Shown here: positions 19,360 to 41,261 of the stretch, piece after piece
How positions within the stretch are numbered: the stretch's first letter is position 1
How the letters are laid out: every line of letters begins with the position of its first letter
Assembly: GCA_020725555.1 (NCBI GenBank)
Contig: DYEU01000010.1
Coordinates: forward strand, 74,980-138,979
Length of the DNA stretch: 64,000 bases
Reading direction: 5' to 3'
Source: Desulfatibacillum sp.
Lineage (GTDB): Bacteria > Desulfobacterota > Desulfobacteria > Desulfobacterales > SpSt-501
Notes under the pieces: model-generated
Seen by the model: the letters and a program-made list of their open reading frames with translations, nothing else
Told to the model about the DNA's origin: nothing
The model's database searches: none
Program-made: the position numbers and the translations under genes

Positions 19360-19375
19360 TGGCGCGATAGTTGCT
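19360..19375 (+). promoter_or_regulatory. sigma54 (-24/-12) promoter of the BMC shell/core operon
   Basis: TGGCGCGATAGTTGCT with canonical GG-N10-GC spacing. About 110 nt upstream of ATG 19485. Confidence 0.7.
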
Positions 19376-20177: not shown

Positions 20178-20197
20178 CCTGAGGAGGCCCGGGCGGC

Positions 20198-21199
20198 GTG
20201 GACATTCTGGAGCGCTGTGTCGAAGCCTGTCGCCGCCACCCCGGGACGGTCGCCTTCCCCGACTGCCTGGACGAGCGGGTGATCGCCGCCGCCGGGCGGC
20301 TCAAGCGCGAAGGGCTTGCCGAGCCCGTTCTCGTCCAGTCCCCCTTCGCCGTGCGCGGGAAACTCCGCGAGGCGCGGGTGCGGGGCACCGGCTTCGTGGT
20401 GGTCGACCCGGGAAGCCCCACGGTTGCGGAAAGGAACGCGCGGCAGTTCAGCGAAATCCGGCGGGAGGCCGGAAAACCCGTGCACGCCGAGGAGGCCGAG
20501 GAGGTCGCGCGCGACCCGCTCACGGCGGCGGCGATGATGGTGCGGCGCGGCGAGGTCGAGGTCGGGGTCGCCGGCAACCTCTCCACCACGGCGGCGGTGC
20601 TGCGCACCGGGCTGCGGGTGCTGCCCCGGAAGCCCGGCATCCGCACCATTTCGAGTTTCTTCCTCATGGTCTCGCCGGACTACGAGCGCCGCTTCATCTT
20701 CGCCGACTGCGCCGTCGTCCCCGAGCCGACGGAGGAGGCGCTCGCCGACATCGCCCTCGCTTCCGCCGACCAGGCGCGCAGCCTCCTGGGCGAGGAGCCG
20801 CGCGTCGCGCTGCTCTCCTTTTCCACCAAGGGCAGCGCCCGGCACCCCCGGGCGGAGATGGTGCGGCGGGCGGTGGAGCTCGTGCGGGAGCGCGCCCCCG
20901 ATTTGAAGGTGGACGGGGAGCTGCAGTTCGACGCCGCCGTGGACCCGGAGGTCGCGGCCCTGAAGGCCCCCGGCAGCGTGCTCGCCGGCCAGGCGAATGT
21001 GGTCATTTTCCCCTCGCTCGAGGCGGGCAACATCGGCTACAAGATGGTGCAACGGCTGGCCGGGTACTCCGCCATCGGCCCCTTCCTTCAGGGGTTCGCC
21101 GGCGGCTGGCACGATCTCTCCCGCGGCTGCAGCGCCGAGGACATTTTTCAGGTGGCCGTGCTGGCGATCTGCATGAAGCGCGGCAACCTGCTCGCATGA
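20198..21199 (+). CDS. pta: phosphate acetyltransferase (PTA_PTB type)
   Basis: 333 aa. [12 protein letters not shown]...[11 protein letters not shown]...[17 protein letters not shown], typical of short Pta. GTG start. Confidence 0.9.
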
Positions 21200-21231
21200 A
21201 CCCGAACGAAACCCTACGCCAGGAGGAATCC

Positions 21232-21510
21232 GTGGACGCACTGGGCATGATCGAAACCAAGGGGCTCGTCGCCCTGATCGAGGCGGCCGACGCCATGGTG
21301 AAGGCCGCGCGGGTCCAGCTCGTCGCCTACAAACAGATCGGGGCGGGCTACGTCACGGCGCTCGTTCGCGGCGACGTCGCCGCCTGCAAGGCGGCCACCG
21401 ACGCCGGGGCGGCGGCCGCGCGCCGCGTGGGCGAGGTGATCGCCGTCCATGTCATCCCGCGCCCCCACGGCGATCTGGACGCCGTCTTTCCGATCCAGGT
21501 GCGGGAATAA
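21232..21510 (+). CDS. BMC-H shell protein (PduA/EutM type)
   Basis: [25 protein letters not shown]...[19 protein letters not shown] 5 nt upstream of GTG 21232. An alternative ATG at 21196 overlaps the pta stop. Confidence 0.9.
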
Positions 21511-21540
21511 CGGGGGGCGCCGGGCAGGCGGGGCTTGGCC

Positions 21541-22878
21541 ATGAACCGGGAGCGCATCCTGCGGCAGATCCGCGATGCCGGCGTCGTCGGCCAGGGCGGG
21601 GCGGGGTTTCCCGCCCACGTCAAGTTCGCCGCCCCGGTGGAGACCGTCATCGCCAACGGCTGCGAGTGCGAGCCGCTGCTCTTCTCCGACCAGGTGCTGA
21701 TGCAGCGCCACGCGGAGGAGATCGTCGAGGCGCTCGAGGCCGTCATGGCCGCGGTCGGTGCGCGCCGCGGGATCATCGCCATCAAGGAAAAATACCGGAC
21801 GGCCGGGGAGCGCTTCGAGCGCCTGCTCGGAGGAAAACCGATCGAGCTTGCGCGCCTTGAGAACTTCTACCCCGCGGGCGACGAGCACGTCCTCGTCCAC
21901 GAACTGCTCGGCCGGGCGATCCCGCCTCTCGGGCTGCCCAAGGATGTCGGCGCCGTCGTCTCCAACGTGGGGACCCTTCATGCCGTGCACCGGGCGATGG
22001 CGGGCCTGCCGGTGACCCACCGCCTGGTCACCGTCACCGGCGAGGTGCGGCGCCCCGCCGTGCTCGAGGTGCCGATCGGCACGCCGGTCGAGGAATGCAT
22101 CGCGGCCTGCGGCGGGCCCGCCGTCGCCGACCCCGTGCTGGTCCTCGGCGGGCCGATGATGGGCCGCTTCGTGGACGGGCCGGAGGCGATGCGCCGGGAG
22201 GTCGTCACCAAGACCACGGGGGGGGTGCTGCTGCTGCCGCGCGGCCACTACCTCCACCGCATGGCCACCCTGTCGGTCCGCGAGATGGAGAAGCAGGCCG
22301 CGGCGGCCTGCATCCAGTGCCGCTACTGCACCGACCTCTGCCCGCGGCACAACATCGGCCACAGCTTCGAGACCCACCGCGTGATGCGGGCCTTCGGCGG
22401 CGGGGTCGCCACGGCGCCGGGAACCCTGCAGGCGTTCCTGTGCAGCGAATGCGGCGTGTGCGAGCTCTTCGCCTGCCCCATGCGGCTTTCGCCGCGGCGG
22501 ATCAACGCCCTGTTCAAGGCCCGCTTCCGCGAGCGGCAGATCGCCTACGAGGGGCCGCGCGAGGTGGTGCCCGCCCAGTCCCTGCTGAACCGGCACCGCA
22601 AGATCCCGGTTTCGCGCCTGGCGATCAAGCTGGACATCCAGAAATACCTCGCCATTCACCCCGCCGAGGGGGAGCGTCTTTCCCCGGCGCAAGTGACGAT
22701 CCCCCTGCAGCAGCATGCGGGGGCCCCGGCCGTCGCCTGCGTGCGACCGGGCGAGCGGGTGGAGGAGGGAGCGGCAATCGGCGAAATCCCCGAGGGCAAG
22801 CTGGGCGCCCGGGTGCACGCCTCCATCGCCGGGGAGGTGATCCGGGTGGACAACGCCGTCACGATCCGGAGGGGCTGA
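21541..22878 (+). CDS. pduS: PduS-like flavin/Fe-S oxidoreductase (RnfC/Nqo1-like)
   Basis: AGVVGQGGAGFPAHVKF nucleotide/flavin motif. Two ferredoxin-type Cys clusters: CIQCRYCTDLCP and CSECGVCELFACP. Confidence 0.85.
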   Translation: MNRERILRQIRDAGVVGQGGAGFPAHVKFAAPVETVIANGCECEPLLFSDQVLMQRHAEEIVEALEAVMAAVGARRGIIAIKEKYRTAGERFERLLGGKPIELARLENFYPAGDEHVLVHELLGRAIPPLGLPKDVGAVVSNVGTLHAVHRAMAGLPVTHRLVTVTGEVRRPAVLEVPIGTPVEECIAACGGPAVADPVLVLGGPMMGRFVDGPEAMRREVVTKTTGGVLLLPRGHYLHRMATLSVREMEKQAAAACIQCRYCTDLCPRHNIGHSFETHRVMRAFGGGVATAPGTLQAFLCSECGVCELFACPMRLSPRRINALFKARFRERQIAYEGPREVVPAQSLLNRHRKIPVSRLAIKLDIQKYLAIHPAEGERLSPAQVTIPLQQHAGAPAVACVRPGERVEEGAAIGEIPEGKLGARVHASIAGEVIRVDNAVTIRRG

Positions 22879-22881
22879 ACC

Positions 22882-23442
22882 GTGGAACCCGAGCTCCATG
22901 CCGTGGGAATGATCGAGTTCAACAGCATCGCCGGGGGCATCGAGGGGGCCGACGCCATGGTGAAGGCCGCGATCGTCGAGCCCTTCCTGATGAAGACCAT
23001 CTGCCCGGGGAAATTCGTCGTCGCCGTGCACGGGGAGGTGGCCGACGTCCAGGCCGCGATCGACGCCGGGCTCGCCCTCGGCAAGGACGCCGTCATCGAT
23101 CACTTCGTCATCCCCCACATCCGCATGGACGTGATCCGCGCGATCGGGGCAAGCCTGACGGACCATCGCGGGGGGGCCGCCCTGGGGGTGATCGAAACCT
23201 TCTCCGCCGCCTCCTGCGTCGTCGCGGCCGATGCGGCGGCCAAAGCCGCCGATGTGGATGTCCTGGACGTGCGGCTCGCCATGGGCCTCGGGGGCAAGGC
23301 GTTCTGCTTGCTCGCCGGGGACGTGGGGGCGGTGGAACGCGCCGTGGAGGCGGGGGCGGAGCGGGCCTCCGCCGAGGGCCTGCTGGTCCGCCGGGTGGTG
23401 ATCCCCGGGGTGGCCGCGGAGGTGCTGCGCCATATCCTCTAG
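22882..23442 (+). CDS. pduT: tandem-domain BMC-T shell protein, PduT-like
   Basis: Two BMC domains ([24 protein letters not shown]; ALGVIETFSAASCVVAADAAAKAA). KTICPGKF matches the Cys-containing Fe-S site motif of Salmonella PduT (recalled). Confidence 0.85.
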   Translation: MEPELHAVGMIEFNSIAGGIEGADAMVKAAIVEPFLMKTICPGKFVVAVHGEVADVQAAIDAGLALGKDAVIDHFVIPHIRMDVIRAIGASLTDHRGGAALGVIETFSAASCVVAADAAAKAADVDVLDVRLAMGLGGKAFCLLAGDVGAVERAVEAGAERASAEGLLVRRVVIPGVAAEVLRHIL

Positions 23443-23494
23443 CCGCGGGGCGCGGCCTGCGAGGCGATTTTTCGTCAAGGAAAGGAAGACACCC

Positions 23495-23839
23495 ATGGCC
23501 GAATCGGAAGCGTTGGGATTCGTCGAAACCCGGGGCCTGGTGGCCGCCATCGAGGCCGCCGACGCGATGGCCAAGGCGGCCCGCGTGCGCATCAAGACCG
23601 TCGGCAACGCCGATGCGGCCCTCATCAGCGTGATCTGCGAGGGCGACATCGCCGCCTGCGCGGCCGCCGTGGACGCGGGGAAAGCCGCCGCGGCCCGCGT
23701 GGGGGACCTGGTCGGCAGCAACCTGATCGCCCGCCCCGACGCGGACACCGCGCGGCTGGTCGAAGAGCGGATCGATGTCCTCATGCCCCCGGCCGGGGAG
23801 GCGGCGAAGGGCACCCCCCGGCCCAAGGGCAGAAAATAA
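23495..23839 (+). CDS. BMC-H shell protein with a ~25-aa basic C-terminal extension
   Basis: [24 protein letters not shown]...[15 protein letters not shown]. Tail [17 protein letters not shown]. Confidence 0.85.
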
Positions 23840-23915
23840 CCCTGCCCGCCCCCCGACGTGGGGGCGGCAACGCCCATGCGGCCCACCGGGGGCCGCCAAG
23901 GAGAGCGAGGAGACC

Positions 23916-24194
23916 ATGATGGACGCACTGGGAATGATCGAAACCAAGGGGTTGACCGCACTGATCGAGGCCTCCGACGCGATGGTCAAGGCCGCGCGCG
24001 TGACCCTCGTCGGCTACGAGCGGATCGGCGGCGGCTACGTGACCGCGCTCGTCCGCGGCGATGTCGCCGCCTGCAAGGCGGCCACCGACGCCGGGGCGGC
24101 CGCGGCGCGCCGCGTCGGGGAAGTGATCGCCGTCCACGTCATCCCGCGGCCGCACGGGGACCTCGAGAAGGTCTTCCCGATCGCCATGAAGTAG
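23916..24194 (+). CDS. BMC-H shell protein (paralogue of 21232..21510)
   Basis: [28 protein letters not shown] 44-aa stretch is identical to the first BMC-H. Confidence 0.9.
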
Positions 24195-24305
24195 CCGCGC
24201 TTGCGGAAGCCCCCCGCCGCGCGATCGGCCGCGGCGGCCCCTGCGCTTCGGGGTCCCCTCTTCCGGGGCACGGGGGGGGACTGGCTTCCAGAGAGGAGAC
24301 CGGCC

Positions 24306-24611
24306 ATGGAACTCGGCAAGGTCATCGGCCAGGTGGTGGCCACGGTGCGCGACCCGGGGCTGCCGAACCTGACCTTTCTGCTCGTGCACATCGTCGACGA
24401 GCACGGCAACGTCACGCTGCCCAGCCAGGTCGCCGCCGACCCGATCGGCGCCGGCGAGGGCGAGATGGTCCTCCTCGTGCGCGGCAGCTCCGCACGGCTC
24501 ATCCTGGAGGGAAAAGCGCCGATCGATCTCAGCGTGATCGGCATCGTCGACCAGATTTCCTCCGGCAAGAAGGCGATCTACGCCAAGTACGCGCCGGAGA
24601 CACGCAAGTAA
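24306..24611 (+). CDS. eutN: BMC-P pentameric vertex protein (EutN/PduN/CcmL family)
   Basis: [19 protein letters not shown]...[20 protein letters not shown]. About 101 aa. Confidence 0.85.
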
Positions 24612-24629
24612 CCGCCCGGGGGAGACTCC

Positions 24630-26051
24630 ATGCAGATCCAGCGTGAGCAAATCGAATCGATCGTCCGCGAAGTCCTCCAGCAGCTCACCGCCCGCATGCC
24701 GCAATCGCCGGCCGCGTCGGCGGAGGGCGACTGGGGGGTGTTCGAGCGGCTCGAGGATGCGGTCTCGGCCGCGGACCGGGCCTTCCGGCGCCTGGACACG
24801 GTCGCCCTGCGCGAGCGCGTCGTCGAGGCGATCCGGCGCGCGGCGCGGGCGAACGCCCGGCGGCTGGCGGAGATGGCCGTGGACGAAACCGGCATGGGAA
24901 GGATCGAGGACAAGGTGAAGAAGATCCTGCTCGTCGCCGACCGCACCCCGGGTCCGGAGATTCTCTTCCCGAGCGCCATGTCCGGGGATGCGGGCTTGAC
25001 GCTCGTCGAAAACGCCCCCTGGGGCGTCATCGCCTCCGTCACCCCCTCCACGAACCCCGCGGCCACGGTCATCAACAACGGGATCAGCATGCTCTCCGGC
25101 GGAAACGCCGTCGTCTTCGCCCCGCACCCGGGCGCCAAGCGGGTCTCCCAGGAGGCGATCCGGATCCTCAACAAGGCGATCCACGAGGAGACGGGCCTCG
25201 TCCACCTGATGACCTGTGTGCGCGAGCCGAGCATCGAAATCGCCCAGAAGCTCTTCACCTACCCCGGGATCCACCTGCTGGTCGTGACCGGCGGGGAGGC
25301 CGTGGTCGAGGCCGCGCGCAAGACGACCAACAAGCGCCTGATCGCCGCCGGCGCCGGAAACCCGCCGGTGGTGGTCGACGAGACCGCGGACCTGAAGCGC
25401 GCGGCGCGCAGCATTTACGAGGGGGCCTCCTTCGACAACAACATCGTCTGCTGCGACGAAAAGGAGATCATCGCCGTCGAGGCCATCGCCGATGCCCTCA
25501 AGCGCGAGCTCGCCGCCTGCGGGGCGGTCGAGATCTCCCGCGAGCAGGCCGAGGCCGTCGCCCGCGCGACGCTCCTCGACTACCCCGGCCCCAAGGCGCG
25601 CCCGAACCCCCGCTGGGTCGGGCGCGACGCCGCCGAGCTCGCCAAGGCGGCCGGTTTCAGCGTCCCCGACGCCTGCCGCCTGCTGTTCGTCGACGTGGGC
25701 CGCGACGTGGACCACGTCTACGCGCGCGTCGAGCAGATGATGCCGCTCGTCCCTCTCCTGCGGGCGGCGGATTTCGAGCAGGCGCTCGAATGGGCGCTCC
25801 TTCTCGAGCGCGACCGCCGGCACACCGCGGCCCTGCACTCGCGCGACATCGACCACATGGACACCATGGCGAAGCGCGTGAACACGAGCCTCTTCGTCAA
25901 GAACGGCCCCTGCATCGCGGGCCTCGGCGCCGGGGGGGAGGGTTGGACCTCGATGACGATCTCGACCCCGACCGGCGAGGGCGTCACCAACGCCCGCACC
26001 TTCGTGCGGCTCAGGCGCTGCACCCTGGTCGGAAGCTTCCGGATCGTCTGA
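24630..26051 (+). CDS. CoA-acylating aldehyde dehydrogenase (PduP/EutE type) with N-terminal encapsulation-peptide-like helix
   Basis: 473 aa. Catalytic Cys region [11 protein letters not shown]-terminus [23 protein letters not shown], then a Pro/Ser/Ala linker, as in PduP. Confidence 0.85.
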
Positions 26052-26110
26052 CCGCGCCCGGGGCAAGGCCCGCCGCACCCGCCGCAAGGCGTTCTGAAGC
26101 GAGGTGCCCC

Positions 26111-26938
26111 ATGATTCCCCTCTCGTGGCCGGAGACGAACCGGCGCCTCGAGCGGGCGGCCGCGCTCTTAAACGACGACCGCCCCGCGCCCGCCCCCGCC
26201 GGTCCCTGCCATCTCGGCATCGATCTCGGGACCGCCGACGTCGTGTTCATGGCCCTCGACGCCCGGGGGGAGCCCGTCTCCTGTTTCCTCGAGTGGACGG
26301 AGGTGGTGCGGGACGGGGTCGTGGTCGATTTCGCGGGCGCCGTGGAGGTCGCCCGCCGCCTGCTCCGGCGCACCGAGGAGCGGCTCGGCCTCTCCTTCCG
26401 CCGGGCCTCGACCTCCTACCCCCCGGGCACCGATCCCAAGCTCTCGACCTACATCCTCGACCGGCTCGGGCTCGAGGTGGCGGGGCTCGCCGACGAGCCG
26501 AGCTGTGTGGCTCGGCTGCTTGAGCTCGAGCGCACGGCGGTCGTCGACGTGGGCGGCGGCACGACGGGCACCGCCGTCGTGCAGGGGGGGCGGGTGGTCT
26601 TCTCCGGGGATCTGCCGACCGGCGGGCGGCACATCACGCTCGTCCTCGCCGGCCATTACGGGATCCCCCCCGAGGAAGCCGAGCTGCGCAAGCGCACGGG
26701 CGACCCCGCCGAGATCCTGCGGCTCGCCCGGCCGACCCTCGAGCGGATGTGCGAGATCGTGGCCGGGCACATCCGCGGCCACGACGTGCGGGAGCTGCTG
26801 CTGACGGGGGGGACCTGCTGCCTGCCGGGGGTGGACCGGGTCTTCGCCGAGGTGCTCGGGCTGCCCGTCCGGCTTCCCGGGCAGCCCCTGCTGCTCACGC
26901 CGCTTGCGATCGCGGCACTCGGCCTCGCCGCGGGCTGA
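26111..26938 (+). CDS. eutJ: EutJ-like actin/Hsp70-fold ATPase
   Basis: HLGIDLGTADVV phosphate-1 motif and VVDVGGGTTGTAV phosphate-2 motif. About 275 aa. Confidence 0.8.
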   Translation: MIPLSWPETNRRLERAAALLNDDRPAPAPAGPCHLGIDLGTADVVFMALDARGEPVSCFLEWTEVVRDGVVVDFAGAVEVARRLLRRTEERLGLSFRRASTSYPPGTDPKLSTYILDRLGLEVAGLADEPSCVARLLELERTAVVDVGGGTTGTAVVQGGRVVFSGDLPTGGRHITLVLAGHYGIPPEEAELRKRTGDPAEILRLARPTLERMCEIVAGHIRGHDVRELLLTGGTCCLPGVDRVFAEVLGLPVRLPGQPLLLTPLAIAALGLAAG

Positions 26939-26973: not shown

Positions 26974-27936
26974 TCAGCGGCCTCCGGCCCGGTAGGCGTC
27001 GGCCGCCGGCTCGGGCTGTTCGGGGACGAGCAGCTCCGGGGCCTCGGTTTGGAGAAAGCGCCGGATCGCGCGTGCCCGCTCCTCGTCAAGCTTGAGCTCG
27101 CCCATGGGAAACTCGAGTCCGAGGTATTCGTACTTGGGTTTTCCCATGCGATGGTAGTCGAGCAGCTCGTAGCGGACGCCGGGCAGCCGGCGGATGTGCT
27201 CCACGATGGCGCGGATCTCCTCCACCGTGTCGTTGAAGCCCGGGATGAGGGGGGTGCGCACCCAGAGGGCGAGCCGCGGGAACTCCTCCCGGATGCGCTG
27301 CAGGTTCTCCAGGATGAGCTCGTTGGAAACGCCGGTGTGGAGCCGGTGTTTGTAGGGGTCCATGCTCTTCACGTCGTAGAGCACGGTGTCGAGCAGCCGG
27401 CACGCCTCCCGCAGGTCCTCCCAGCGGCAGAAGCCGCAGGTCTCCATGGCCGTGTTGAGCCGCCGGCGCCGCGCTTCCCGCAGGAGCGCGATCGCAAAGC
27501 GCGGCTGGTGCATCGGCTCCCCGCCGCTCAGCGTGAGCCCGCCCCCGGAGCGGGTGTAGAAGGCCTGGTCCTCCTCGACCCGGGAGAGCACCTGCTCGAC
27601 GCTCAGCACCTCCCCGTAGACGTTCAGCGCCCGCGACGGGCAGGCCTGGAGGCACAGCAGGCACTCGGTGCAGACGTCGCGGTCGATCGCGATCCGGTTG
27701 TCCTCCCCGGCCTTGAGGGCCCCGGCCGTGCAGACCTCCAGGCAGCGCACGCAGTGCTCGATCCCCAGGCACTTGTTGCGGTTGTAGACGAGCTGGGGGG
27801 CGCCTTTCTGGGACTCGGGGTTGCTGCACCAGCGGCAATGCAGAGGGCAGCCCTTCAGGAACACGACGGTCCGGATGCCCGGACCGTCGTGGACCGAGTA
27901 TTTCTGGATGTTGAAGACGATGCCGGTTTCGGCCAT
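26974..27936 (-). CDS. islB: glycyl-radical enzyme activating enzyme (radical SAM)
   Basis: GCPLHCRWCSNPE (CX3CX2C). Extra ferredoxin-like clusters CLGIEHCVRCLEVC and CTECLLCLQACP. Immediately downstream of the GRE. ATG 27936 preferred. Confidence 0.85.
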   Translation of the reverse strand: MAETGIVFNIQKYSVHDGPGIRTVVFLKGCPLHCRWCSNPESQKGAPQLVYNRNKCLGIEHCVRCLEVCTAGALKAGEDNRIAIDRDVCTECLLCLQACPSRALNVYGEVLSVEQVLSRVEEDQAFYTRSGGGLTLSGGEPMHQPRFAIALLREARRRRLNTAMETCGFCRWEDLREACRLLDTVLYDVKSMDPYKHRLHTGVSNELILENLQRIREEFPRLALWVRTPLIPGFNDTVEEIRAIVEHIRRLPGVRYELLDYHRMGKPKYEYLGLEFPMGELKLDEERARAIRRFLQTEAPELLVPEQPEPAADAYRAGGR

Positions 27937-27969
27937 GCGGCCTCGCAACCCCGCCCCGGGCGGGGCGGG

Positions 27970-30465
27970 TTACAGGGTTTCGTGTTCGGTGCGCGCGATC
28001 AGGTCGTTTTGCAGATCGGGCGAGAGATCCACGAAGTAGGCGCTGTAGCCGGCGATCCGCACGATGAGGCCGCGGTACTTTTCGGGATCGCGCTGCGCGG
28101 CGATCAGCGTCTGCTTGTTGATCACGTTGAACTGCACGTGCCAGAGCTTGAGGTCGCACCAGGTGCGGATGAAGGAGACGAGCTTGCGGGTGCCCTCGTC
28201 CCCGGCCAGGCATTTCGGGGTGAACTTGATGTTGAGCAGCCGCGAGGCGCGCTCCCGGAAATCGTAGTTCTTGCTCGCGAAGTTGGAGAGCAGGACCGCC
28301 GTCGGCCCGTTGCGGTCGGCGCCCTGGGAGGCGGAGGAGCCGTCCGAGAGCGGGGTCCACGCTTTGCGGCCGTTGGGGGTCGCGCCGACCACCTTGCCGA
28401 AGGGGACGTGCGAGGTGAACGGGACGTAGCGCAGGTCGAGGTGCACGCCGAGCTCGCGGGCGTACTTGTGGGTGAACTCGAGCGCGGCGCGGTCGACCGC
28501 CTTGGCGATCCCGTCGGCGTAGGGGTCGTTGTTGCCGTAGCAGGGCGCGTTCATCAGGAGATGGCGCAGGTCCTCGCGGCCCTCGAAGTTGTTGGCGAGC
28601 GCCTCGAGCAGCTCGTCCATCGAGACCTTCTTCTCCTCGAAGACGAACTTCTTGATCGCCGCAAGCGAGTCCACCACCGTGCCGTAGCCGATGAACTCGA
28701 AATAGCCGAGGTCGATCCCGCCGGGGATCTTCGGCTGGTGGAGATCGAGGCAGTGCTGCATGCACAGGTCATGGAGCGCCGAGGCGAGCGGGGCGGCGAA
28801 GTGCTGCGCCCGCAGGCGGATGATGTGGTACTGCTGGATGAAGGCCTGCTTGATGAACTCGGTCTGGTGCGTGAGGTAGGCGTTCCAGAACTCCTCCCAG
28901 CTCTTGAAGCCGCGGGGATCGCCCGTCTGGAGCCCGATCTGCTCCTCGCCGTACTTGCGCATCCTGCCGTTGAGGAGCGTCATCTCGAGGGCGGCGGCGA
29001 AATTGATGTAGGCGCAACCGCTCGTGTAGGTGTCGCGGTTGGGCATGCGCGCTTCGGTGCAGCCCGAGACCGCGTAGTCGTAGGCCTCCTCGAAGGTCGC
29101 CCCCTTGGAGACGTAGAGGGGGATCACCTCCTCGTCGTTGATCAGCTTGGGGAAGCCCGAGCCCTCCTTGATGGTCTCGGCCACCTCCCAGAGGAAGCGC
29201 TCGGGGCTGCGGGTGTGGATGCGCGCCGCGAGGTCGGGGTAGTGCATGGGGAACTCGCGCTTGGAGCGCAGGAACAGGTAGCTCAGCTCGTTGGTCGCGT
29301 CGCGGCCGTCGCGCGTCTGGCCGCCGATCGTGACCGCTTCCCAGTGGGCGTAGCCCTCGTTGAACGCGCCGCCCGTGGGGGAGATGTAGAGATCGATGAA
29401 CTGCGCCATCCCGAGCCACATGCACTCGAGGATCTCGAGCACCCGGTCGTCCGTCAGGCGGCCCTCCTCCTTGTCCTTCTTGTAGAAGGGGTAGAGGTAC
29501 TGGTCCATGCGGCCGTTGGAGATGACCGTGCCGGTCTTCTGCTCGATGCGCGAGAACATCTGGGTGAACCACTGCGCCTGCATGGCCTCGTGGAAGGTCG
29601 TCGCCGGGTTCTCCGGCACCCGCTCGCAGATGCGCGCGATTTCGGCGAGTTCGGCCTTGCGCTGCGGGTCCTTCTCCCGGGCGGCGAGCTCGGCGGCGAG
29701 CCGGGCGTGGCGCTTGGCCCAGAGGACGACCGCGTCGCAGAGGATGACGACCGCCTCGAGGAACGGCTTCTTCTCGGTGTTGTCGAGCGGGCTGAGCGGG
29801 TCGAGGGCCGCCAGCCGCTCCTCGGCCTCCCTGCGGATGCCCTTGAAGCCGCGCTTGAGCACCTTTTCGTAGTCGTGCACCCACTGCAGGCAGGAGCGGA
29901 AGGAGGCCGTCTCGTTCACGATGTAGCGCGAGATGAGGACGTTCTGCGGGTCGTAGGTGTAACGGAGCGTCTCCTCGGGCAGGGCCTTGGCCAGGGACTC
30001 GTGAAAGGTCTTGCCCTTCCAGAAGGGGGCGATCTCCTCGATCACCAGCCGCGCATCGTCGGGATCGATGTCGAAGGGCGACTGCACCCGCTGCGCGAGC
30101 TGCTCCACGGCGAGATCCAGAAAGTCGCCGTCGAGCTCGGGGTAGAGGATCCCGTAGCGGCCCTGCTTGCCCGCCCGGCCGACCAGCAGCTGGTCCTCGT
30201 CGATGTAGACGGTGATGTTTTCGGCGATGTGCTTGAGGGCCTTGGCCCAGCGCAGCATGAGGTGCTGGCCCTCGGTCGCTTTCATGGACTCGGTGAAATA
30301 GCGGGCGCGCTCGATGTCGATCCGCGGCCGTTGCGCCTGGAAGCGCTTCATGATGCGGAAGACCCGCTCCCGGCCCCGCTCGTATTTCTCGGCGCGGCCC
30401 TGCATCTCATCGAAGAGGCGCTGCTCGTGGGGGGAGAGCACTTCACAGCAAGGAACCTGGGACAT
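27970..30465 (-). CDS. islA: glycyl radical enzyme, candidate isethionate sulfite-lyase (C2-sulfonate C-S lyase)
   Basis: 831 aa. Glycyl-radical motif [10 protein letters not shown] (G806). Cys loop SGC469-T-E471. R190/L193/Q194/W375/R679/V681/F683 sit one residue offset from the IslA/IseG sulfonate-pocket residues I recall. AAGGAGGAG RBS. Confidence 0.65.
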
Positions 30466-30559: not shown

Positions 30560-30576
30560 AGCAAAGAGCGTGCCTC
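30560..30576 (-). promoter_or_regulatory. sigma54 (-24/-12) promoter of the GRE/activase operon
   Basis: Minus strand GAGGCACGCTCTTTGCT. About 95 nt upstream of ATG 30465. Confidence 0.7.
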
Positions 30577-30803: not shown

Positions 30804-30819
30804 GTTGCAATAATGCAGC
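30804..30819. promoter_or_regulatory. 16-bp palindrome copy 4 (candidate UAS)
   Basis: GTTGCA-ATAA-TGCAGC. A degenerate copy, GTTGCA-ATAA-AACAAC, lies at 30741-30756. Confidence 0.55.
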
Positions 30820-30823: not shown

Positions 30824-30839
30824 GCTGCAACTATGCAAC
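30824..30839. promoter_or_regulatory. 16-bp palindrome copy 5 (candidate UAS)
   Basis: GCTGCA-ACTA-TGCAAC, with flanks identical to copy 3. Confidence 0.55.
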
Positions 30840-31015: not shown

Positions 31016-31031
31016 TGGCGCGGTTGTTGCT
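31016..31031 (+). promoter_or_regulatory. sigma54 (-24/-12) promoter of the TRAP (dctPQM) operon
   Basis: TGGCGCGGTTGTTGCT. The -24 and -12 blocks are identical to the BMC operon promoter. About 130 nt upstream of ATG 31164. Confidence 0.65.
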
Positions 31032-31163: not shown

Positions 31164-32294
31164 ATGAATCGCTTGCGCATTGCCGCCGCCTTGATGATGA
31201 TCGCCTTCGGGCTCGCCGCCTTCGGGCCCGCCCCGGCCGAAGCCCAGAACTACACCCTCAAGATCCAGACCGCCGTGCCCAGCTCGAGCATCTACTTCAA
31301 GCTGATCGAGCGCATGGGCCAGCGCGTGGGCGAAATGTCCGGCGGCCGCCTCAAGGTCGAAACCCTGCCCAACGGCGCCGTGGTCGGCGCTTTCGAAATC
31401 CTCGACGCCGTGCACAAGAACATCGTGAACGGCGGCTTCGCCTGGACCCACTACTGGTCCGGCAAGCACCCCGCCGGGCTGCTCTTCTCCGCCCCCACGG
31501 CCGGCCTCGGCGTCGGGCTCGACCAGAACAGCGTCATGTCCTGGATCTACGACGGCGGCGGGGACGAACTTTACCAGAAATACTTCACCGAGGTCCTGAA
31601 GTACAACATCAAGGGGTTCCTCTGCATGCCGATGGGCCCCGAGCCGTACGGCTGGTTCTCCAAGCCGGTCAACTCCGTCGAAGACCTCAAGAAGATGAAG
31701 TTCCGCTCGCCCCCCGGCATCCCCGCCGAGTCGTTCAAGGTGCTCGGCATCCCCACCGTCTCCATGCCCGGCGGCGAGATCGTCCCCTCGGCCCAGCGCG
31801 GCGTGATCGACGCCGCGGAGTGGATCAGCCCCGCCGACGACGCGGCCCTGGGGTTGAACACCGTCTGGAAGCACTATTACATCCAGGGGCTCCACCAGGC
31901 GATCTCGATCGGCGACATCTACGTGAACCTCGAGTGGTGGAACAAGCTCCCCAAGGACCTGCAGGCCATCTTCCAGGGCGGCATCATGAGCCTGATCTCC
32001 GACACCATCCACTGGAACGTGAGCCAGAACAGCAAGGCCCTCAAAAAATTCGTCGTGGAGGACAAGGTCCAGGTTCACGACACGCCCGCCGACTACTACC
32101 CGGCCTACATGGCGGCCGCCAAACAGGTGATCGACAAATACGCCCAGCAGGACGCCTTCTTCAAGAAAGTCCTGGAGGCGATGGTCGACTGGGCGAACCT
32201 GACCGTGCCCTATCAGGCGCGCGCCAACGCCACCTACGCCACCATGGGCAAGACCGCCCTCGAAAAGGGCATCGTCGGTTACGAGAAGAAATAA
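31164..32294 (+). CDS. TRAP transporter DctP-type solute-binding protein
   Basis: Signal peptide, then a 350-aa DctP-like domain. Followed by DctQ and DctM genes. Confidence 0.85.
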   Translation: MNRLRIAAALMMIAFGLAAFGPAPAEAQNYTLKIQTAVPSSSIYFKLIERMGQRVGEMSGGRLKVETLPNGAVVGAFEILDAVHKNIVNGGFAWTHYWSGKHPAGLLFSAPTAGLGVGLDQNSVMSWIYDGGGDELYQKYFTEVLKYNIKGFLCMPMGPEPYGWFSKPVNSVEDLKKMKFRSPPGIPAESFKVLGIPTVSMPGGEIVPSAQRGVIDAAEWISPADDAALGLNTVWKHYYIQGLHQAISIGDIYVNLEWWNKLPKDLQAIFQGGIMSLISDTIHWNVSQNSKALKKFVVEDKVQVHDTPADYYPAYMAAAKQVIDKYAQQDAFFKKVLEAMVDWANLTVPYQARANATYATMGKTALEKGIVGYEKK

Positions 32295-32308
32295 CGCCCC
32301 GACGCCGC

Positions 32309-32346
32309 GCGCCGGGGGCCCCCGCGGCCCCCGGCGCCTTTTCTCC
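32309..32346 (+). terminator. terminator-like hairpin between dctP and dctQ (partial termination or mRNA stabiliser)
   Basis: GCGCCGGGGGCC-CCCGC-GGCCCCCGGCGC followed by CTTTTCTCC. Confidence 0.5.
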
Positions 32347-32360
32347 AAGGAACGCCAATC

Positions 32361-32963
32361 ATGACGAACGAACCCCAGGAAACCGAGCGCGCCGCGACGC
32401 GCGGGGGACTGCACAACGCCCCCCCGGGGCTTGCCCGGCTGCTCGGCACCATCGACCGCATCAGCCTCGTGAGCGGCAAGATCATCGCCTGGATGATCCT
32501 GCCGATGTCGCTCAGCCTCGTCTACGAGGTGATCGCCCGCTACGTGTTCAACGCGCCCACGATCTGGGCCTCGGACATCAGCCAGATCCTCTACGGCGCC
32601 TTTTTTATGCTGGGCTCGGCCTACGCGCTGCAGCGCCAGCAGCACATCCGCACCGATTTCCTCTACGGCAAATGGTCGATCCGCACGCGCGGGATGGTGG
32701 ACGCCGCCTGCTACATCGGGCTCTACTTCCCGGCGATGCTGTTTTTTCTCTACATCGGCTCCGAGTTCGCCTACCGCTCGGTGCTCTTCAACGAGCGCCT
32801 CGTCACCAGCCCCTGGATGCCGATCATCTGGCCGCAGAAGCTCGCCATCCCCATCTCCACCCTGCTGCTCCTGATCCAGGGGGTCTCCGAGCTGCTCAAG
32901 GCCCTGTACGCGGCCAGAACGGGGGTCAGCCTGATTGAAGAGCAGGCCGGCTCCGAGACCTGA
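32361..32963 (+). CDS. TRAP transporter small permease (DctQ)
   Basis: 200 aa, 4 predicted TM segments. Positioned between the DctP and DctM genes. Confidence 0.85.
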   Translation: MTNEPQETERAATRGGLHNAPPGLARLLGTIDRISLVSGKIIAWMILPMSLSLVYEVIARYVFNAPTIWASDISQILYGAFFMLGSAYALQRQQHIRTDFLYGKWSIRTRGMVDAACYIGLYFPAMLFFLYIGSEFAYRSVLFNERLVTSPWMPIIWPQKLAIPISTLLLLIQGVSELLKALYAARTGVSLIEEQAGSET

Positions 32964-32984
32964 CCGGGAAGGAGGAAGCGCACG

Positions 32985-34301
<1,317 letters not shown>

Positions 34302-34399: not shown

Positions 34400-35806
34400 A
34401 TGGAGCCGATCGAACCCTACATCGACCGCATCCTCGACGTCTTAAGCGACGGGATCTACATCTCGGACCGCGAGGGCTACACCCTCAAGGTCAACACGAT
34501 GTACGAGAAGCTGATCGGCCTGAACCGGGAGGACCTGGTCGGCCGGCGCGTCCAGGACCTCGTGCGCGAAGGCGTCTTCGACGTCGTGCTGAACCCGACG
34601 ATCGTGAAGACCGGGCAGCCCGCGACCTCGGTGCAGACGACGAAGAAGGGGCAGAAGCTCATCCTGAACGGGCACCCCATCTTCGACGCCGAGGGGCGGG
34701 TTGCGCTGGTCGTCACCTTCGTGCGCGACGTCACCGTGATGAGCCAGCTCCGCGAGCAGATCGCCGCGCAGAAAAAGCTCCTCGAGCAGTTGCGCACCAA
34801 CGTGCAGTACATCACCGAGGAGACCTTCCAGCGCTTTCCGCTCGCGAGCTTCCGCAGCCGCGAGATGGTGCAGCTGAACAAGCTGATCGAAAAAGTCGCC
34901 GCCACCGACGCGACCGTCCTCATTTTGGGCGAGACCGGGGTGGGCAAGGAGTTCATCGCCCGCGCCATCCACCGCGCCAGCCCCCGGAGCGACCGCACGT
35001 TCTTCAAGCTCGACTGCGCGACCATCCCGGAAAACCTGATCGAATCCGAGCTCTTCGGCTACGCCGCGGGGGCCTTCTCGGGGGCGAGCGTCAAGGGCAA
35101 GCCCGGGCTCTGCGAGATGGCCGACGGCGGCACCCTCTTCCTTGACGAGATCGGCGAGCTACCCCCGGCCATGCAGGTCAAGCTGCTCCGCCTGCTCCAG
35201 GACCAGGAGATCATCCCCGTCGGCTCGACCCGGGTCAGGCGGGTTGACGTGCGCATCCTCGCCGCGACGAACCGCGACCTCGAAAAGGAGATCGAGCAGG
35301 GCCGCTTCCGCAGCGACCTCTACTTCCGCCTGCGCGTCGCCGTGCTCCACGTCCCGCCCCTGCGCGAGCGCCGCGAGGACATCCTGCCGCTCGCCGAGCA
35401 TTTCCTGCGCAAGTACGCCGCCAAGTACCGCAAGGAGCTCCGCTTCGCGCCGGAGGTCGAAAAGGCCTTTGTCGCCCATCGCTGGCCGGGGAACATCCGC
35501 GAGCTCGAAAACCTGATCGAGAGCGTCGTCGTGACCTGCGACCGCCCGGTCGTGGAGCTCGCCGACCTCAACTCCTGCATGTGGAACGAGGGCGCCGGCC
35601 GCACGCGAAGCCTCTACGAAACCCTGGACACCCGGGGGAAATCGCTCAAGGAGATCCTGCAGGAGATCGAGGGGGAGATCCTCGCCGGCGCACTCGCGGC
35701 CCACGGGTCGATGGCGCGGGCCGCCGCCGCCCTGCGGGTGGACCGCTCGACCGTCTTCCGCAAGCTGCGGCGCGCGGCGAAGAAGCCGCCGGCGGGGCCG
35801 CAATGA
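34400..35806 (+). CDS. PAS-domain sigma54-dependent transcriptional activator (NtrC/Fis family)
   Basis: PAS-like N-terminus. AAA+ core with Walker A GETGVGKE and sigma54-contact loop ESELFGYAAGAFSGA. C-terminal Fis-type HTH GSMARAAAALRVDRSTVFRKLRR. Confidence 0.9.
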   Translation: MEPIEPYIDRILDVLSDGIYISDREGYTLKVNTMYEKLIGLNREDLVGRRVQDLVREGVFDVVLNPTIVKTGQPATSVQTTKKGQKLILNGHPIFDAEGRVALVVTFVRDVTVMSQLREQIAAQKKLLEQLRTNVQYITEETFQRFPLASFRSREMVQLNKLIEKVAATDATVLILGETGVGKEFIARAIHRASPRSDRTFFKLDCATIPENLIESELFGYAAGAFSGASVKGKPGLCEMADGGTLFLDEIGELPPAMQVKLLRLLQDQEIIPVGSTRVRRVDVRILAATNRDLEKEIEQGRFRSDLYFRLRVAVLHVPPLRERREDILPLAEHFLRKYAAKYRKELRFAPEVEKAFVAHRWPGNIRELENLIESVVVTCDRPVVELADLNSCMWNEGAGRTRSLYETLDTRGKSLKEILQEIEGEILAGALAAHGSMARAAAALRVDRSTVFRKLRRAAKKPPAGPQ

Positions 35807-35826: not shown

Positions 35827-37041
35827 TCAGGGCCGCCGTTGCTCGGCGAGGGCCTGGCGGGTTTCGCGGGCGATCTCGAGTTCCTCGTTGGTGGGGATCA
35901 CGAGCACGGCCACGCGGCTTGAGGCGGCGTGCACGGCCCGCGGCCCCGCGGCGGGGGATTCGTTCAGGGCCTCGTTCAGGAGGATCCCCAGGAACCCGAG
36001 GTCCGCCAAGGCGCGGCGGCGGATTTCGGGGGCGTTCTCGCCGATCCCGGCCGTGAAGACCACGGCATCCAGCCCGCCCAGGGCCGCCGCGTAGGCCCCG
36101 ATCGTCTTGCGGATGCGGTAGCAGAACATCTCGACGGCGAGCTCCGCCTGGTTGCTCCCGTTGCGGGCGGCGGCGAGGATATCGCGCACGTCGTTGCTGC
36201 CCACCCCGGCGAGCGCGAGCAGCCCGCTTCTCCGGTTGAGAAGATCGTTCATCGCCGCGGGCGAAAAGCCGTGGCGCTCCATCAGGTAGAGCACGGCCGC
36301 CGGGTCGATGTCCCCGCTGCGGGTCCCCATGAGCAGCCCTTCGAGGGGGGTGAAGCCCATGCTCGTGTCCAGGCTCCGGCCGTCGCGCACGGCGGTCACG
36401 CTGCAGCCGTTTCCGAGGTGGCAGGTGACGAGCCTGAGCCCCTCGGGGGGCCGTCCGAGAAAGCGCGCCGCCTCGCCGGCCACGTACTTGTGGCTGATCC
36501 CGTGGAAGCCGTAGCGCCGCACACCGTCCTCGGCGTGGAACCGGAGGGGGATCCCGTAGAGAAAGGCATGCCGCGGGAGGCTCGCGTGGAAGGCGGTGTC
36601 GAAGACGGCGACCTGCACGGCGTGCGGGATATGCCGCTCGCAGGCCGCGATCCCGCGCAGGTGGTGCGGGTTGTGCAGCGGGGCCAGCGGGACGATCGAC
36701 TCGAGGTAGGCCTTGGCCGCCTCGTCCAGGACGACCGGCCGGGTCAGCCGCTCGCCGCCGTGGACCACGCGGTGGCCCACGGCCTCGATCTCGCCGACCC
36801 CGGCGATCACCCCGTGTTGCGGATGACCCAGGGCCTCGAGAATGACCTCGACCGCGCGGTCGACGTCGGCGCCGGGGACGGGGGTTTCCACCGCCTCGCC
36901 GCCCGCCCGCCGGGCCTTGAGGCGCGTTCCCTCGAGCCCGATCCGCTCGACGATCCCGGAGGCCCGGGGGGTGTCGGCGTCGGAGGGAAAGAGCGTGAAC
37001 TTGACCGAGGAGCTGCCGGCGTTGATCGTGAGAATCGCCAT
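35827..37041 (-). CDS. ackA: acetate kinase
   Basis: MAILTINAGSSSVKF...HRVVHGG...FDTAFH...GFHGISH...IPTNEE. Start moved to ATG 37041. Confidence 0.9.
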   Translation of the reverse strand: MAILTINAGSSSVKFTLFPSDADTPRASGIVERIGLEGTRLKARRAGGEAVETPVPGADVDRAVEVILEALGHPQHGVIAGVGEIEAVGHRVVHGGERLTRPVVLDEAAKAYLESIVPLAPLHNPHHLRGIAACERHIPHAVQVAVFDTAFHASLPRHAFLYGIPLRFHAEDGVRRYGFHGISHKYVAGEAARFLGRPPEGLRLVTCHLGNGCSVTAVRDGRSLDTSMGFTPLEGLLMGTRSGDIDPAAVLYLMERHGFSPAAMNDLLNRRSGLLALAGVGSNDVRDILAAARNGSNQAELAVEMFCYRIRKTIGAYAAALGGLDAVVFTAGIGENAPEIRRRALADLGFLGILLNEALNESPAAGPRAVHAASSRVAVLVIPTNEELEIARETRQALAEQRRP

Positions 37042-37055: not shown

Positions 37056-37808
37056 TCAGGCGGCGCCCTGCCGGCCGCGGCGGGCGGAGCGGGAGAGGGT
37101 GACGCAGACGTGCTCGTCGGGCTTTTCCGGGGGGCCGGGCCGGCGGGCATCGGCCCCGTCGGCGAAGTAAAAGCGCCGGATCTGCTTCTCCTGGGCCGCA
37201 AACGACCAGTGGACGTCGCGCCAGATGTAGGCCGCGAGTTCCCGGTCGCCCTTCTCGAAGGCCTCGATCAGGCGCTCGTGGTCGCGGCAGTTGCTCAGCT
37301 CCCATTCGCGGATGTAGCCGCGGCGGGGGAAATCGTAGAGGCGCCGCTTCATCGGCGCGATGATGCGCTTGATCATCTCGTTGTGCGACAGGTCGAGAAA
37401 CACGCGGTGAAAGAGGATGTTTCCCTCGTAGTAGCCCTGGAAATCGCTCCGCTTGATCATCACGCGCAGCTCGCGGTTGAGCGCCTTCATGCGCTCAAGA
37501 TGGAGCGGCTGTACGTTGTCGAAGACGGCGAGGATGACGGTCGTCTCGAGCGCGCCCACGACCTCGTAGATGTTGCGGATGTCCTCGAGGGTCAGCCGGT
37601 TGACGAAGACCCCCCGGCGCGGGCAGATGGTGACGAAGCCCTCGGTGTCGAGCTGCAGGAGGGCGTCGCGCAGGGGGGTCTTGCTGATCCCCAGCTCCCG
37701 GCTGATCGCGTTCAGGTTCACCGCCGCCCCGGGGATGAGCTTCCCCCGGGTGAGCTCCTGGCGCAGGTAATCGTAGACCTGTTCGCGAAGCGAGCGCTGC
37801 TCGAGCAT
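37056..37808 (-). CDS. GntR-family (FadR/FCD subfamily) transcriptional regulator
   Basis: N-terminal wHTH LNAISRELGISKTPLRDALLQLDTEGFV and an all-helical C-domain. AAGGAGG upstream of ATG 37808. Confidence 0.85.
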   Translation of the reverse strand: MLEQRSLREQVYDYLRQELTRGKLIPGAAVNLNAISRELGISKTPLRDALLQLDTEGFVTICPRRGVFVNRLTLEDIRNIYEVVGALETTVILAVFDNVQPLHLERMKALNRELRVMIKRSDFQGYYEGNILFHRVFLDLSHNEMIKRIIAPMKRRLYDFPRRGYIREWELSNCRDHERLIEAFEKGDRELAAYIWRDVHWSFAAQEKQIRRFYFADGADARRPGPPEKPDEHVCVTLSRSARRGRQGAA

Positions 37809-37837: not shown

Positions 37838-39205
37838 TCATTTCTCGACCACGGCGTCGCAAAGGGCGAGGTTGCGGTCGATCACCTCGAGCCCGAAGTC
37901 GAGCTCCTCCTTGGTGATGATGAGCGGCGGGGTGATCATGATCACCGAGGCGCCCCCGGCCATGATGTAGACCCCCTCCTCCATGCACTTGGCGAGAAAG
38001 GTCATCTTGGCCGTCGCCGGCCGCGGCGGCTCCATCAGCGCCTCGTGGATGGGCTCCTTGGTCTTGCGGTTCTTCACGATCTCGATGCCGCAGAAGAGCC
38101 CCTTGCCGCGGACCTCGCCCACGCAGGGGTGCTTGTCCTGGATTTCCCTCAACCGCTCCATGAGGTAGGCGCCCGTCTGGGCCGCCCGCTCGATGAGGCG
38201 GTCCTCGCGGTAGGCCTCGATCGCCGCCACCCCCGCCGCCATGGCGAGCGCGTGCCCGGAGTAGGTGTGGCCGTGGAGGTAAGGCATGGTTTCGAACTTT
38301 TCCGCGATCCAGGGCCGCACGGTCGTCGCCCCGAGCGGTATGGAGCCGGAGTTGATGCCCTTGGCCATGGTGATGATGTCGGGCACGACGTTCCAGTGGT
38401 CCATCCCGAACCATTTGCCCGTGCGGCCGAAGCCGGTCATGACCTCGTCGGCGATCAGGACCATCTCGTACTTGTCGCAGATCGCGCGCACCATCGGCCA
38501 ATATTCGTCCGGCGGGACGATGATCCCGCCCGCGCCGAAGATCGGCTCGCCGATGATCCCCGCCACCCGCCGCGCCCCGCCCTCGAGCCGAACCACCTCC
38601 TCCACGTGCTTGGCGCACTGGATGTCGCAGGAGGGGTAGGTCGCCCCGAAGCTGCAGCGGTAGCAGTAGGGGGGAAGGATGTGGATCGCCCCCGGAACGG
38701 CGGGCTCGGCACACCAGTTGCGGTAGTCGGCCGAGAGCGCCATGGCCCCCATGGTCGAGCCGTGGTAGGAGCGCCAGCGCGAGAGGATTTTCTGCTTGCC
38801 GGTGACCCAGCGGGCGATCTTCGCCGCGCCTTCGTTGGCCTCCGTCCCGCCGGTCGAAAAGAAGGACTTCTTGAGGTCCCCGGGGGTCACCTCGGCGAGG
38901 AGCTTCCCCAGCCGCGCCTTGGGCTCGGTCGCCCACTGGGAGTTGACGCTGGGGAGGGTGGCGGCCTGGCGGGCGATGGCGGCGTTGACGCGATCGTCGC
39001 AGTGCCCCAGGTTGGTGAACACGAATTGGGAGGTGAAATCGAGGACCTTTTTGCCCTCGGGGTTTTTCACCCAGCACCCCTTGCCCTCGACGGCGACGAA
39101 GGGCTTGAGCCCCTTCTGCGCCGTCCAGGGCGTCATCACGTACTCGGCCTCGTAGCGCCGGATGGTCTCGGCGTCCAAGCGTTCGCTGCGGTTTGCTTCC
39201 GACAT
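37838..39205 (-). CDS. class-III (omega) aminotransferase, candidate taurine:pyruvate aminotransferase
   Basis: FFSTGGTEANEGAAKIAR, LIADEVMTGFGRTGKWFG, and the PLP-Lys region DIITMAKGINSG. Substrate is inferred from context only. Confidence 0.8.
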   Translation of the reverse strand: MSEANRSERLDAETIRRYEAEYVMTPWTAQKGLKPFVAVEGKGCWVKNPEGKKVLDFTSQFVFTNLGHCDDRVNAAIARQAATLPSVNSQWATEPKARLGKLLAEVTPGDLKKSFFSTGGTEANEGAAKIARWVTGKQKILSRWRSYHGSTMGAMALSADYRNWCAEPAVPGAIHILPPYCYRCSFGATYPSCDIQCAKHVEEVVRLEGGARRVAGIIGEPIFGAGGIIVPPDEYWPMVRAICDKYEMVLIADEVMTGFGRTGKWFGMDHWNVVPDIITMAKGINSGSIPLGATTVRPWIAEKFETMPYLHGHTYSGHALAMAAGVAAIEAYREDRLIERAAQTGAYLMERLREIQDKHPCVGEVRGKGLFCGIEIVKNRKTKEPIHEALMEPPRPATAKMTFLAKCMEEGVYIMAGGASVIMITPPLIITKEELDFGLEVIDRNLALCDAVVEK

Positions 39206-39242
39206 GGCATCCTCCTTGCGCCGCATCCCCGCGGCGCGGCGT

Positions 39243-41242: not shown

Positions 41243-41261
41243 GGTCGGCAGGGGCCCCCTC

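Follow-up and report, generated by a model that had tools for sequence, protein, structure and literature searches.

A predicted isethionate sulfite-lyase gene and its microcompartment locus in a Desulfatibacillum genome

The stretch of DNA considered here (the window, 64,000 nucleotides of a Desulfatibacillum sp. contig, G+C 69.3%) contains, at 27970-30465 on the minus strand, an open reading frame (ORF) for an 831-amino-acid glycyl radical enzyme (GRE) that is predicted to be an isethionate sulfite-lyase (iseG/islA). The prediction draws on the ORF and its translation, on phmmer matches in the PDB, on MAFFT identities and on Foldseek. The ORF begins with ATG, it has an AGGAGG directly 5' of this start codon and the G+C of its three codon positions (0.63/0.40/0.95) is as expected for a coding sequence. 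Around it lie genes for a radical-SAM activating enzyme, a bacterial microcompartment, a TRAP transporter, a sigma-54-dependent activator and a set of enzymes and transporters of a taurine type.

The glycyl radical enzyme and its active-site residues

Three characterised enzymes with solved structures serve as references. They are IseG of Desulfovibrio (Nitratidesulfovibrio) vulgaris Hildenborough (5YMR; Xing et al. 2019, PMC6453916), IslA of Bilophila wadsworthia (7KQ3; PMC8473560, PMC6386719, PMC8667426) and HpsG, also of B. wadsworthia (6LON), which is a sulfolyase of (S)-2,3-dihydroxypropanesulfonate (DHPS).

Six short segments of the protein, all encoded on the minus strand, hold the residues of interest. 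The glycyl radical motif VRIAG (residues 802-806, 28048-28062) contains the predicted radical site, G806, and the Cys loop SGCTE (residues 467-471, 29053-29067) contains the predicted thiyl-radical cysteine, C469, and the general base, E471. Two of the three residues of a predicted sulfonate clamp, R190 and Q194, are in FRSCLQ (residues 189-194, 29884-29901), together with F189 and with L193, the equivalent of IslA I192. The third clamp residue, R679, is accompanied by V681 and F683 in DLRYVPF (residues 677-683, 28417-28437). The counterpart of W375 in AHWEA (residues 373-377, 29335-29349) is IslA Trp374, a residue in contact with the Gly loop (PMC8473560), and that of T313 in TGT (residues 311-313, 29527-29535) is IslA Thr312; proteins of the HpsG type have ASA at this place.

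A phmmer search of the PDB ranks IseG first (1424 bits), followed by IslA (1356 bits) and HpsG (1237 bits), and the next match is the choline lyase CutC (9F3W) with 564 bits. In a MAFFT alignment the protein is 73.5% identical to IseG, 68.0% to IslA and 63.9% to HpsG, and IseG and IslA are themselves 73.1% identical. The alignment to IslA extends over 825 residues and is free of gaps around every pocket segment, so that R190, L193, Q194, W375, C469, E471, R679, V681, F683 and G806 fall on IslA R189, I192, Q193, W374, C468, E470, R678, V680, F682 and G805. IslA has one extra residue near residue 98 of the protein, and the offset between the two is +2 on the N-terminal side of that point and a constant +1 after it because of this single one-residue indel. 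The pocket residues are at +3 relative to the numbering of IseG (R187, Q191, C466, E468 and R676) and at +7 relative to that of HpsG (R183, Q187, C462, E464 and R672, as given in a review of 2026, PMC13450708).

An AlphaFold2 model of the protein has a pLDDT of 82 and a pTM of 0.87 overall. With this model Foldseek places IseG, IslA and HpsG first, with TM-scores of 0.91-0.95, and all of the other GREs score 0.76-0.87. The protein therefore has a GRE fold in addition to the VRIAG and SGCTE motifs. The pocket loops of the model are of low confidence, and for this reason it was not used to superpose residues; pocket geometry was judged by sequence alignment to the crystal structures.

An earlier note, which was made from the DNA letters alone, had proposed that the active-site residues of this GRE coincide with the sulfonate pocket of IslA at a uniform shift of one. 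Its motif positions and residue numbers proved exact on re-translation, and the IslA residues that it cited are those named in the structure paper, in which Gly805, Cys468 and Glu470 are catalytic, Arg189, Gln193 and Arg678 bind the sulfonate and mutants were made at Phe682, Trp374, Ile192 and Val680 (PMC8473560). The alignment to the 7KQ3 sequence bears out both the shift and the superposition on the pocket, and the similar length that the note pointed to is also real (831 residues here and 830 in 7KQ3). The note was correct that the change from I to L at position 193 is the sole difference among the residues it listed, but this is hardly a deviation, since leucine is the commonest residue among the closest homologues (82 L vs 37 I in the IseG-type set described below) and IslA position 192 is not conserved; an IslA I192A mutant has a near-wild-type KM and, of all the mutants in the panel, the highest kcat (PMC8473560). 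The coincidence as a whole is due to close homology and not to chance, and it carries no independent signal.

Separation from the DHPS sulfolyases

The Arg/Gln/Arg clamp is common to the protein, IseG, IslA and HpsG (R183, Q187 and R672 in HpsG, PMC13450708), and therefore the clamp cannot decide the substrate. The earlier note had cautioned that both HpsG and HpfG share it. The caution holds for HpsG; HpfG is a distant GRE and no serious rival, its NCBIfam model (NF048009) giving the protein 472 bits against a cutoff of 1000.

The question was addressed with the 120 best database homologues of the protein and the 120 best of HpsG, aligned with the three references. Four discriminating positions were chosen near the known active-site segments, and at each of them the protein agrees with IseG and IslA and differs from HpsG: position 189 is F in the three and Y in HpsG, position 313 (IslA Thr312) is T and A, position 485 is A and V, and position 683 (IslA Phe682) is F and I. 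The HpsG-type residues (Y182, A306, V478 by offset, and I676 in HpsG numbering) were derived here from the alignment of the 240 homologues and not from a mutagenesis study or a description by the authors of the primary HpsG paper. The combination Y, A, V and I is present in HpsG and in 103 of the 119 proteins with Y189, and the protein has none of the four.

A wider screen, for positions with at least 90% conservation inside both groups but with a different residue in each, gave 25. In the protein all 25 carry the IseG-group residue and none the HpsG-group residue. This count is in part circular, since the IseG-type group was assembled around the protein itself. The independent references behave similarly, with IseG having 20 IseG-group and 4 HpsG-group residues and IslA 19 and 3. 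In a bootstrapped neighbor-joining (NJ) tree of 115 representatives, built on gap-trimmed columns, all of the F189-type proteins, including the protein studied here, IseG and IslA, separate from all of the Y189-type proteins, including HpsG, in 99 of 100 replicates.

Two homologues, P0209 and P0210, are 82-84% identical to Bilophila IslA and yet combine Y189 with T313, A485 and F683. The F/Y difference at position 189 taken alone was rejected as a substrate marker on account of these two proteins.

Species-representative genomes were scanned and yielded 486 encoded relatives, and gene neighborhoods were counted in 80 genome loci of the clade. The closest relatives are from Desulfobacterales metagenome-assembled genomes (MAGs), with 94-95% identity. 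Residues F189, R190, Q194, W375, C469, E471, R679, V681 and G806 are invariant in the 80 loci, T313 and F683 are kept in 79, and positions 192, 193, 484 and 485 vary. The whole signature, F-R-x-x-Q...T...W...C-x-E...R-x-V-x-F...G, is likewise kept in 79 of the 80. The only relative among these 80 loci with the HpsG-like pair A313 and I683 is from a Desulfovibrionaceae MAG (locus L073, match at 7863-10355), and it has kept F189. The TRAP binding protein of the window has a homologue there too, with 52% identity. This relative may be an intermediate or may represent an independent switch toward DHPS.

The surrounding genes and their regulation

The gene adjoining iseG, at 26974-27948 on the minus strand, would encode its cognate activase, the radical-SAM activating enzyme iseH/islB (TIGR02494, 351 bits; NF048010, 479 bits), with the motif CPLHCRWC at residues 34-41. 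A homologue of this gene adjoins the GRE gene in 71 of the 80 related loci.

Converging on the activase gene from the plus strand is a microcompartment operon (19485-26938). It encodes, in order, a EutQ-like cupin (19485-20177), Pta (20198-21199), a PduS/RnfC-like flavo-FeS protein (21535-22878), a PduT-like shell protein (22882-23442), two BMC-H proteins (23495-23839 and 23919-24194), a EutN/BMC-P vertex protein (24306-24611), an acylating aldehyde dehydrogenase (24630-26051; NF011927, 637 bits) and a EutJ-like protein (26111-26938). BMC-H, BMC-T/PduT-like and BMC-P shell proteins, an aldehyde dehydrogenase and Pta near a GRE and its activase are the gene content of the GRMguf type, and the locus is assigned to this microcompartment type as recognized from its genes. 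What led Xing et al. to single out the IseG family was that it typically goes together with TRAP transporters and microcompartments (PMC6453916).

Divergent from the operon is a gene for an Amidohydro_2 protein (Pfam PF04909; 17750-18733, minus strand), which is a conserved neighbor of iseGH. It occurs with iseG and iseH in 34 of the 80 loci (L018-L078), in Desulfovibrionaceae, Desulfitobacterium, Desulfosporosinus and others, and it does so whether or not microcompartment genes are present.

On the other side of iseG, a TRAP transporter that is predicted to import isethionate is encoded on the plus strand (31164-34301; NCBIfam DctP/DctM), with a solute-binding protein (31164-32294), a small membrane subunit (32361-32963) and a large membrane subunit (32985-34301). 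The binding protein is closest to TTHA0766 (2ZZV, 148 bits), which is of the lactate/keto-acid type. A search for a close match to the isethionate binder OaIseP or the DHPS binder BwHpsK gave none above 148 bits. The TTHA0766/TakP-like TRAP type is beside the GRE in 17 of the 80 loci, and the Nitratidesulfovibrio loci use another TRAP family. The binding protein may belong to a second isethionate-binding lineage.

Next come a gene for a regulator, discussed below, and then a run of genes on the minus strand, whose substrates, like that of the TRAP transporter, are suggested by homology and context. They begin with the acetate kinase AckA (35827-37041; TIGR00016, 461 bits) and a GntR/FCD-family regulator (37056-37790). 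A class-III aminotransferase (37838-39226) is a candidate taurine aminotransferase, its best solved relative being a taurine:2-oxoglutarate aminotransferase (6JIX, 300 bits), and an iron-containing alcohol dehydrogenase (39243-40397), identified as such by its PDB matches, is a candidate sulfoacetaldehyde reductase (SarD/TauF-like) solely by its context. A five-gene ABC importer of the taurine/aliphatic-sulfonate type (40484-45045) completes the run, with an ATPase (40484-41242), two permeases (41262-42143 and 42147-42941), a binding protein (43017-44165) and a second ATPase (44245-45045); it has TauC, TauB and SsuA-family matches, all of them below the equivalog cutoffs. No alanine dehydrogenase or dsr genes are among the window genes scanned.

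Elsewhere in the window are two genes of the TauE/SafE family (sulfite/sulfonate exporters), both on the plus strand (16902-17642 and 54242-55120). The first of these is just beyond the microcompartment locus and beside a carboxymuconolactone-decarboxylase-family gene (16479-16877). A TAXI-type TRAP system on the minus strand (10736-14220) combines an NMT1_3 binding protein (13225-14220) with a large, fused permease of the DctM type (10736-12850). A 1369-amino-acid ORF (5189-9298, minus strand) has a trypsin-like peptidase domain and a weak protein-kinase-like match, and it adjoins a PolX-type DNA polymerase/PHP gene (1322-3151).

The regulator between the TRAP and ackA genes (34400-35806, plus strand) has a PAS domain, a sigma-54-interaction AAA+ domain and a helix-turn-helix. 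A homologue is near the GRE in 48 of the 80 loci, including those of Nitratidesulfovibrio. A search of the whole window for sigma-54 sites (TGGCAC-N5-TTGC, one mismatch allowed) gave six matches where 3.2 would be expected, a total that is not above chance; the noteworthy part is their placement. Four of the six are in the correct orientation and 70-135 nucleotides upstream of the amidohydrolase gene (18747-18761, minus strand), the microcompartment operon (19360-19374, plus strand), iseGH (30561-30575, minus strand) and the TRAP operon (31016-31030, plus strand, 134 nucleotides upstream). The site at iseG, AGGCAC-N5-TTGC, is about 96 nucleotides upstream of the ATG and is a consensus match only.

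The same two divergent intergenic regions hold palindromes of the form TGCA-N4-TGCA with an AT-rich core, and these are confined to them, with seven strand hits against 0.03 expected in the window. Two such palindromes (30806-30817 and 30826-30837) are between iseG and the TRAP operon and would be candidate activator sites, and there are others at 19081-19092 and 19210-19221, between the amidohydrolase gene and the microcompartment operon. It is plausible that the palindrome is the binding site of a sigma-54 activator, and the sigma-54-like sites and palindromes together look like the regulon of the PAS/sigma-54 activator encoded at 34400-35806.

The arrangement of these genes is shared to different extents. 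The stretch from the alcohol dehydrogenase gene to the amidohydrolase gene is fully collinear in one relative (L001), and the microcompartment operon is collinear in this one and two more (L002 and L005). The combination of microcompartment, GRE, TRAP and regulator is present in about 15 loci, with Desulfatibacillum, Desulfacinum, Desulfomicrobium and Desulfosarcinaceae among the lineages. A minimal module, consisting of amidohydrolase, iseG, iseH and sigma-54 activator, is distributed much more widely and occurs in Nitratidesulfovibrio, the genus to which the source species of the characterised IseG is now assigned.

With the D. vulgaris system the locus has in common an activase gene next to that of the GRE and, as seen in loci of the genus, an amidohydrolase and a sigma-54 activator close by; the enzyme itself has the same 17-letter Cys loop, clamp, T313, A485, F683 and glycyl motif. 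The enzyme differs from IseG at three pocket positions (S192 to C, I193 to L and G484 to C), and in D. vulgaris-type loci the TRAP transporter is of another family, with a DctM that is only 26% identical, and the flanks that were retrieved, approximately 10 kb to either side of the GRE, contain no shell genes. The locus also resembles the Bilophila IslAB cluster and its GRMguf microcompartment in gene content, which agrees nearly item for item with Table 1 of the study of that cluster (PMC8667426): aldehyde dehydrogenase, EutN, Pta, EutQ, a BMC shell protein, PduT-like and PduS/RnfC-like proteins, a PAS-domain regulator and an amidohydrolase (HMPREF0179_00649 in Bilophila, PMC8667426). However, gene order and strands differ, EutJ and the TRAP system are extra here, and the EutT-like adenosyltransferase of the Bilophila cluster was not found at this locus. 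The ABC importer, aminotransferase, iron-containing alcohol dehydrogenase and AckA genes adjoin the lyase cluster here, whereas their Bilophila counterparts lie apart, in a cluster of their own with independent regulation.

The probable substrate and the proposed route

Taken together, the gene very probably encodes an isethionate sulfite-lyase that is the orthologue of D. vulgaris IseG and B. wadsworthia IslA. This was also the assignment of the earlier note, and the PDB ranking, the discriminating positions, the NJ tree, in which the protein clusters with IseG and IslA and apart from the HpsG group, and the gene context all support it. The genes by which that note had favored isethionate (microcompartment, aldehyde dehydrogenase, aminotransferase and alcohol dehydrogenase) are indeed all present, and they are kept in relatives. 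The gene is an ordinary member of its family in a known type of microcompartment locus, and little about it is new.

Several observations weigh against this assignment. Identity to characterised enzymes is no higher than 68-74%, and isethionate is suggested as the substrate of the protein by sequence and context. The regions where the AlphaFold2 model has a pLDDT below 50 are exactly the pocket loops (184-189, 311-314, 683-697 and 805-809). In the sub-lineage to which the protein belongs, C192 and C484 replace the S and G of IseG and IslA, and C484 is also the HpsG residue. In an untrimmed NJ tree of all 241 sequences IslA falls on the HpsG side of the best split; the placement of IslA is not robust, and the protein studied here is grouped with IseG in both trees. 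NCBIfam names the protein "(2S)-3-sulfopropanediol dehydratase", through the equivalog NF048011 ("HpsGDes", 1590 bits against a cutoff of 1000), although the same model passes IseG and IslA. Finally, the TRAP binding protein has no match to OaIseP (8T9T/8TE9) at E<=1e-3, and its TTHA0766/TakP-like type would weaken the assignment of isethionate as the ligand of the transporter.

The last of these points bears on a reading in which the enzyme is an IseG-like C-S lyase that prefers different or broader small hydroxy-sulfonates, delivered by the TakP/TTHA0766-like TRAP system. This type of binding protein is so far without an experimental link to isethionate, and the lineage-specific combination C192/L193/C484 is present in only six of the 80 loci. 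However, the residues that matter in the IslA mutagenesis (E470, Q193, R189, R678, V680, F682 and W374) are all identical here, positions 192, 193 and 484 vary freely across the clade, and the IslA I192A mutant has the kinetics noted above. In addition, a taurine-type importer, an aminotransferase and an iron-containing alcohol dehydrogenase would together supply isethionate specifically. We consider this reading improbable. A related proposal is unlikely as well: that the C192/L193/C484 sub-lineage of Desulfobacterales IseG and its conserved TRAP system would handle another or an additional hydroxy-sulfonate or, in a weaker form, that the TRAP binder would be a second isethionate-binding family that evolved independently of IseP.

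That the enzyme is instead a DHPS sulfolyase, releasing sulfite and hydroxyacetone from (S)-2,3-dihydroxypropanesulfonate as HpsG does, is very improbable. It is 64% identical to HpsG and has the same fold, Cys loop, glycyl motif and clamp, and L193 and C484 are HpsG residues also. The NCBIfam name points in the same direction, but NF048011 does not discriminate, since it gives IseG 1559, IslA 1504 and HpsG 1510 bits; it spans the whole IseG/IslA/HpsG clade, and therefore the name was rejected as evidence for DHPS. Many of the close homologues in public databases are labelled with it. The activase model NF048010 likely lumps activities in the same way. As for the residues, leucine prevails at position 193 in the IseG-type set too, and HpsG has Y, A, V and I where the protein has F, T, A and F, plus about 20 further group-specific positions, none of which has the HpsG-group residue here. 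HpsG is also in a separate clade in the bootstrapped tree. The locus would suit the handling of acetaldehyde in a microcompartment, whereas Bilophila HpsGH are not associated with shell genes and their product, hydroxyacetone, is not an aldehyde (PMC8667426).

A different microcompartment GRE eliminase (choline trimethylamine-lyase, propanediol/glycerol dehydratase or the DHPS dehydratase HpfG) would share the general eliminase fold, the GCxE motif and a microcompartment locus, but this extremely improbable reading is effectively refuted by the PDB ranking, by Foldseek identities of only 32-35% to such enzymes (CutC 32-34%), by NCBIfam scores far below the cutoffs for CutC (TIGR04394, 546 vs 1050 bits) and HypD (563 vs 1100 bits) as well as for HpfG, and by the absence of the Arg/Gln/Arg clamp from those GREs (PMC8473560).

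For an isethionate sulfite-lyase, the reaction can be outlined by homology to the solved enzymes and the pathway from the gene content. The activase (26974-27948) would install a radical on G806, which would pass to C469, and the resulting thiyl radical would take a hydrogen from C1 of isethionate, the sulfonate being held by R190, Q194 and R679 and the hydroxyl deprotonated by E471. Cleavage of the C-S bond would then yield sulfite and acetaldehyde. Presumably this takes place inside the microcompartment, where the acylating aldehyde dehydrogenase and Pta would convert the toxic acetaldehyde to acetyl-CoA and then to acetyl phosphate, from which AckA would make acetate and ATP. Isethionate could arrive directly through the adjacent TRAP transporter, or it could be made from taurine that is imported by the ABC system, converted by the aminotransferase to sulfoacetaldehyde and reduced by the iron-containing alcohol dehydrogenase. 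Presumably the sulfite is then reduced to sulfide in respiration, by enzymes whose genes lie outside of the window, and expression is probably driven by the PAS/sigma-54 activator at the -24/-12 promoters. The locus would therefore encode a complete route from taurine through isethionate to sulfite and acetaldehyde, and on to acetate.

There are some modest by-products of the analysis. These are the four positions that separate isethionate lyases from DHPS sulfolyases, the lumping of the two activities by NF048011, so that pipeline names within the IseG/IslA/HpsG clade conflate isethionate and DHPS lyases, and the conserved but uncharacterised TRAP type and the amidohydrolase that travel with iseGH.

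In conclusion, a function can be assigned with good confidence to a protein that annotation pipelines would call a "glycyl radical protein", a "formate C-acetyltransferase" or, misleadingly, a "(2S)-3-sulfopropanediol dehydratase". An uncultured Desulfobacterales-like bacterium of 69% G+C would thus have the whole taurine/isethionate-to-sulfite route, which is the sulfide-producing route of Bilophila, together with its microcompartment in one contiguous locus.

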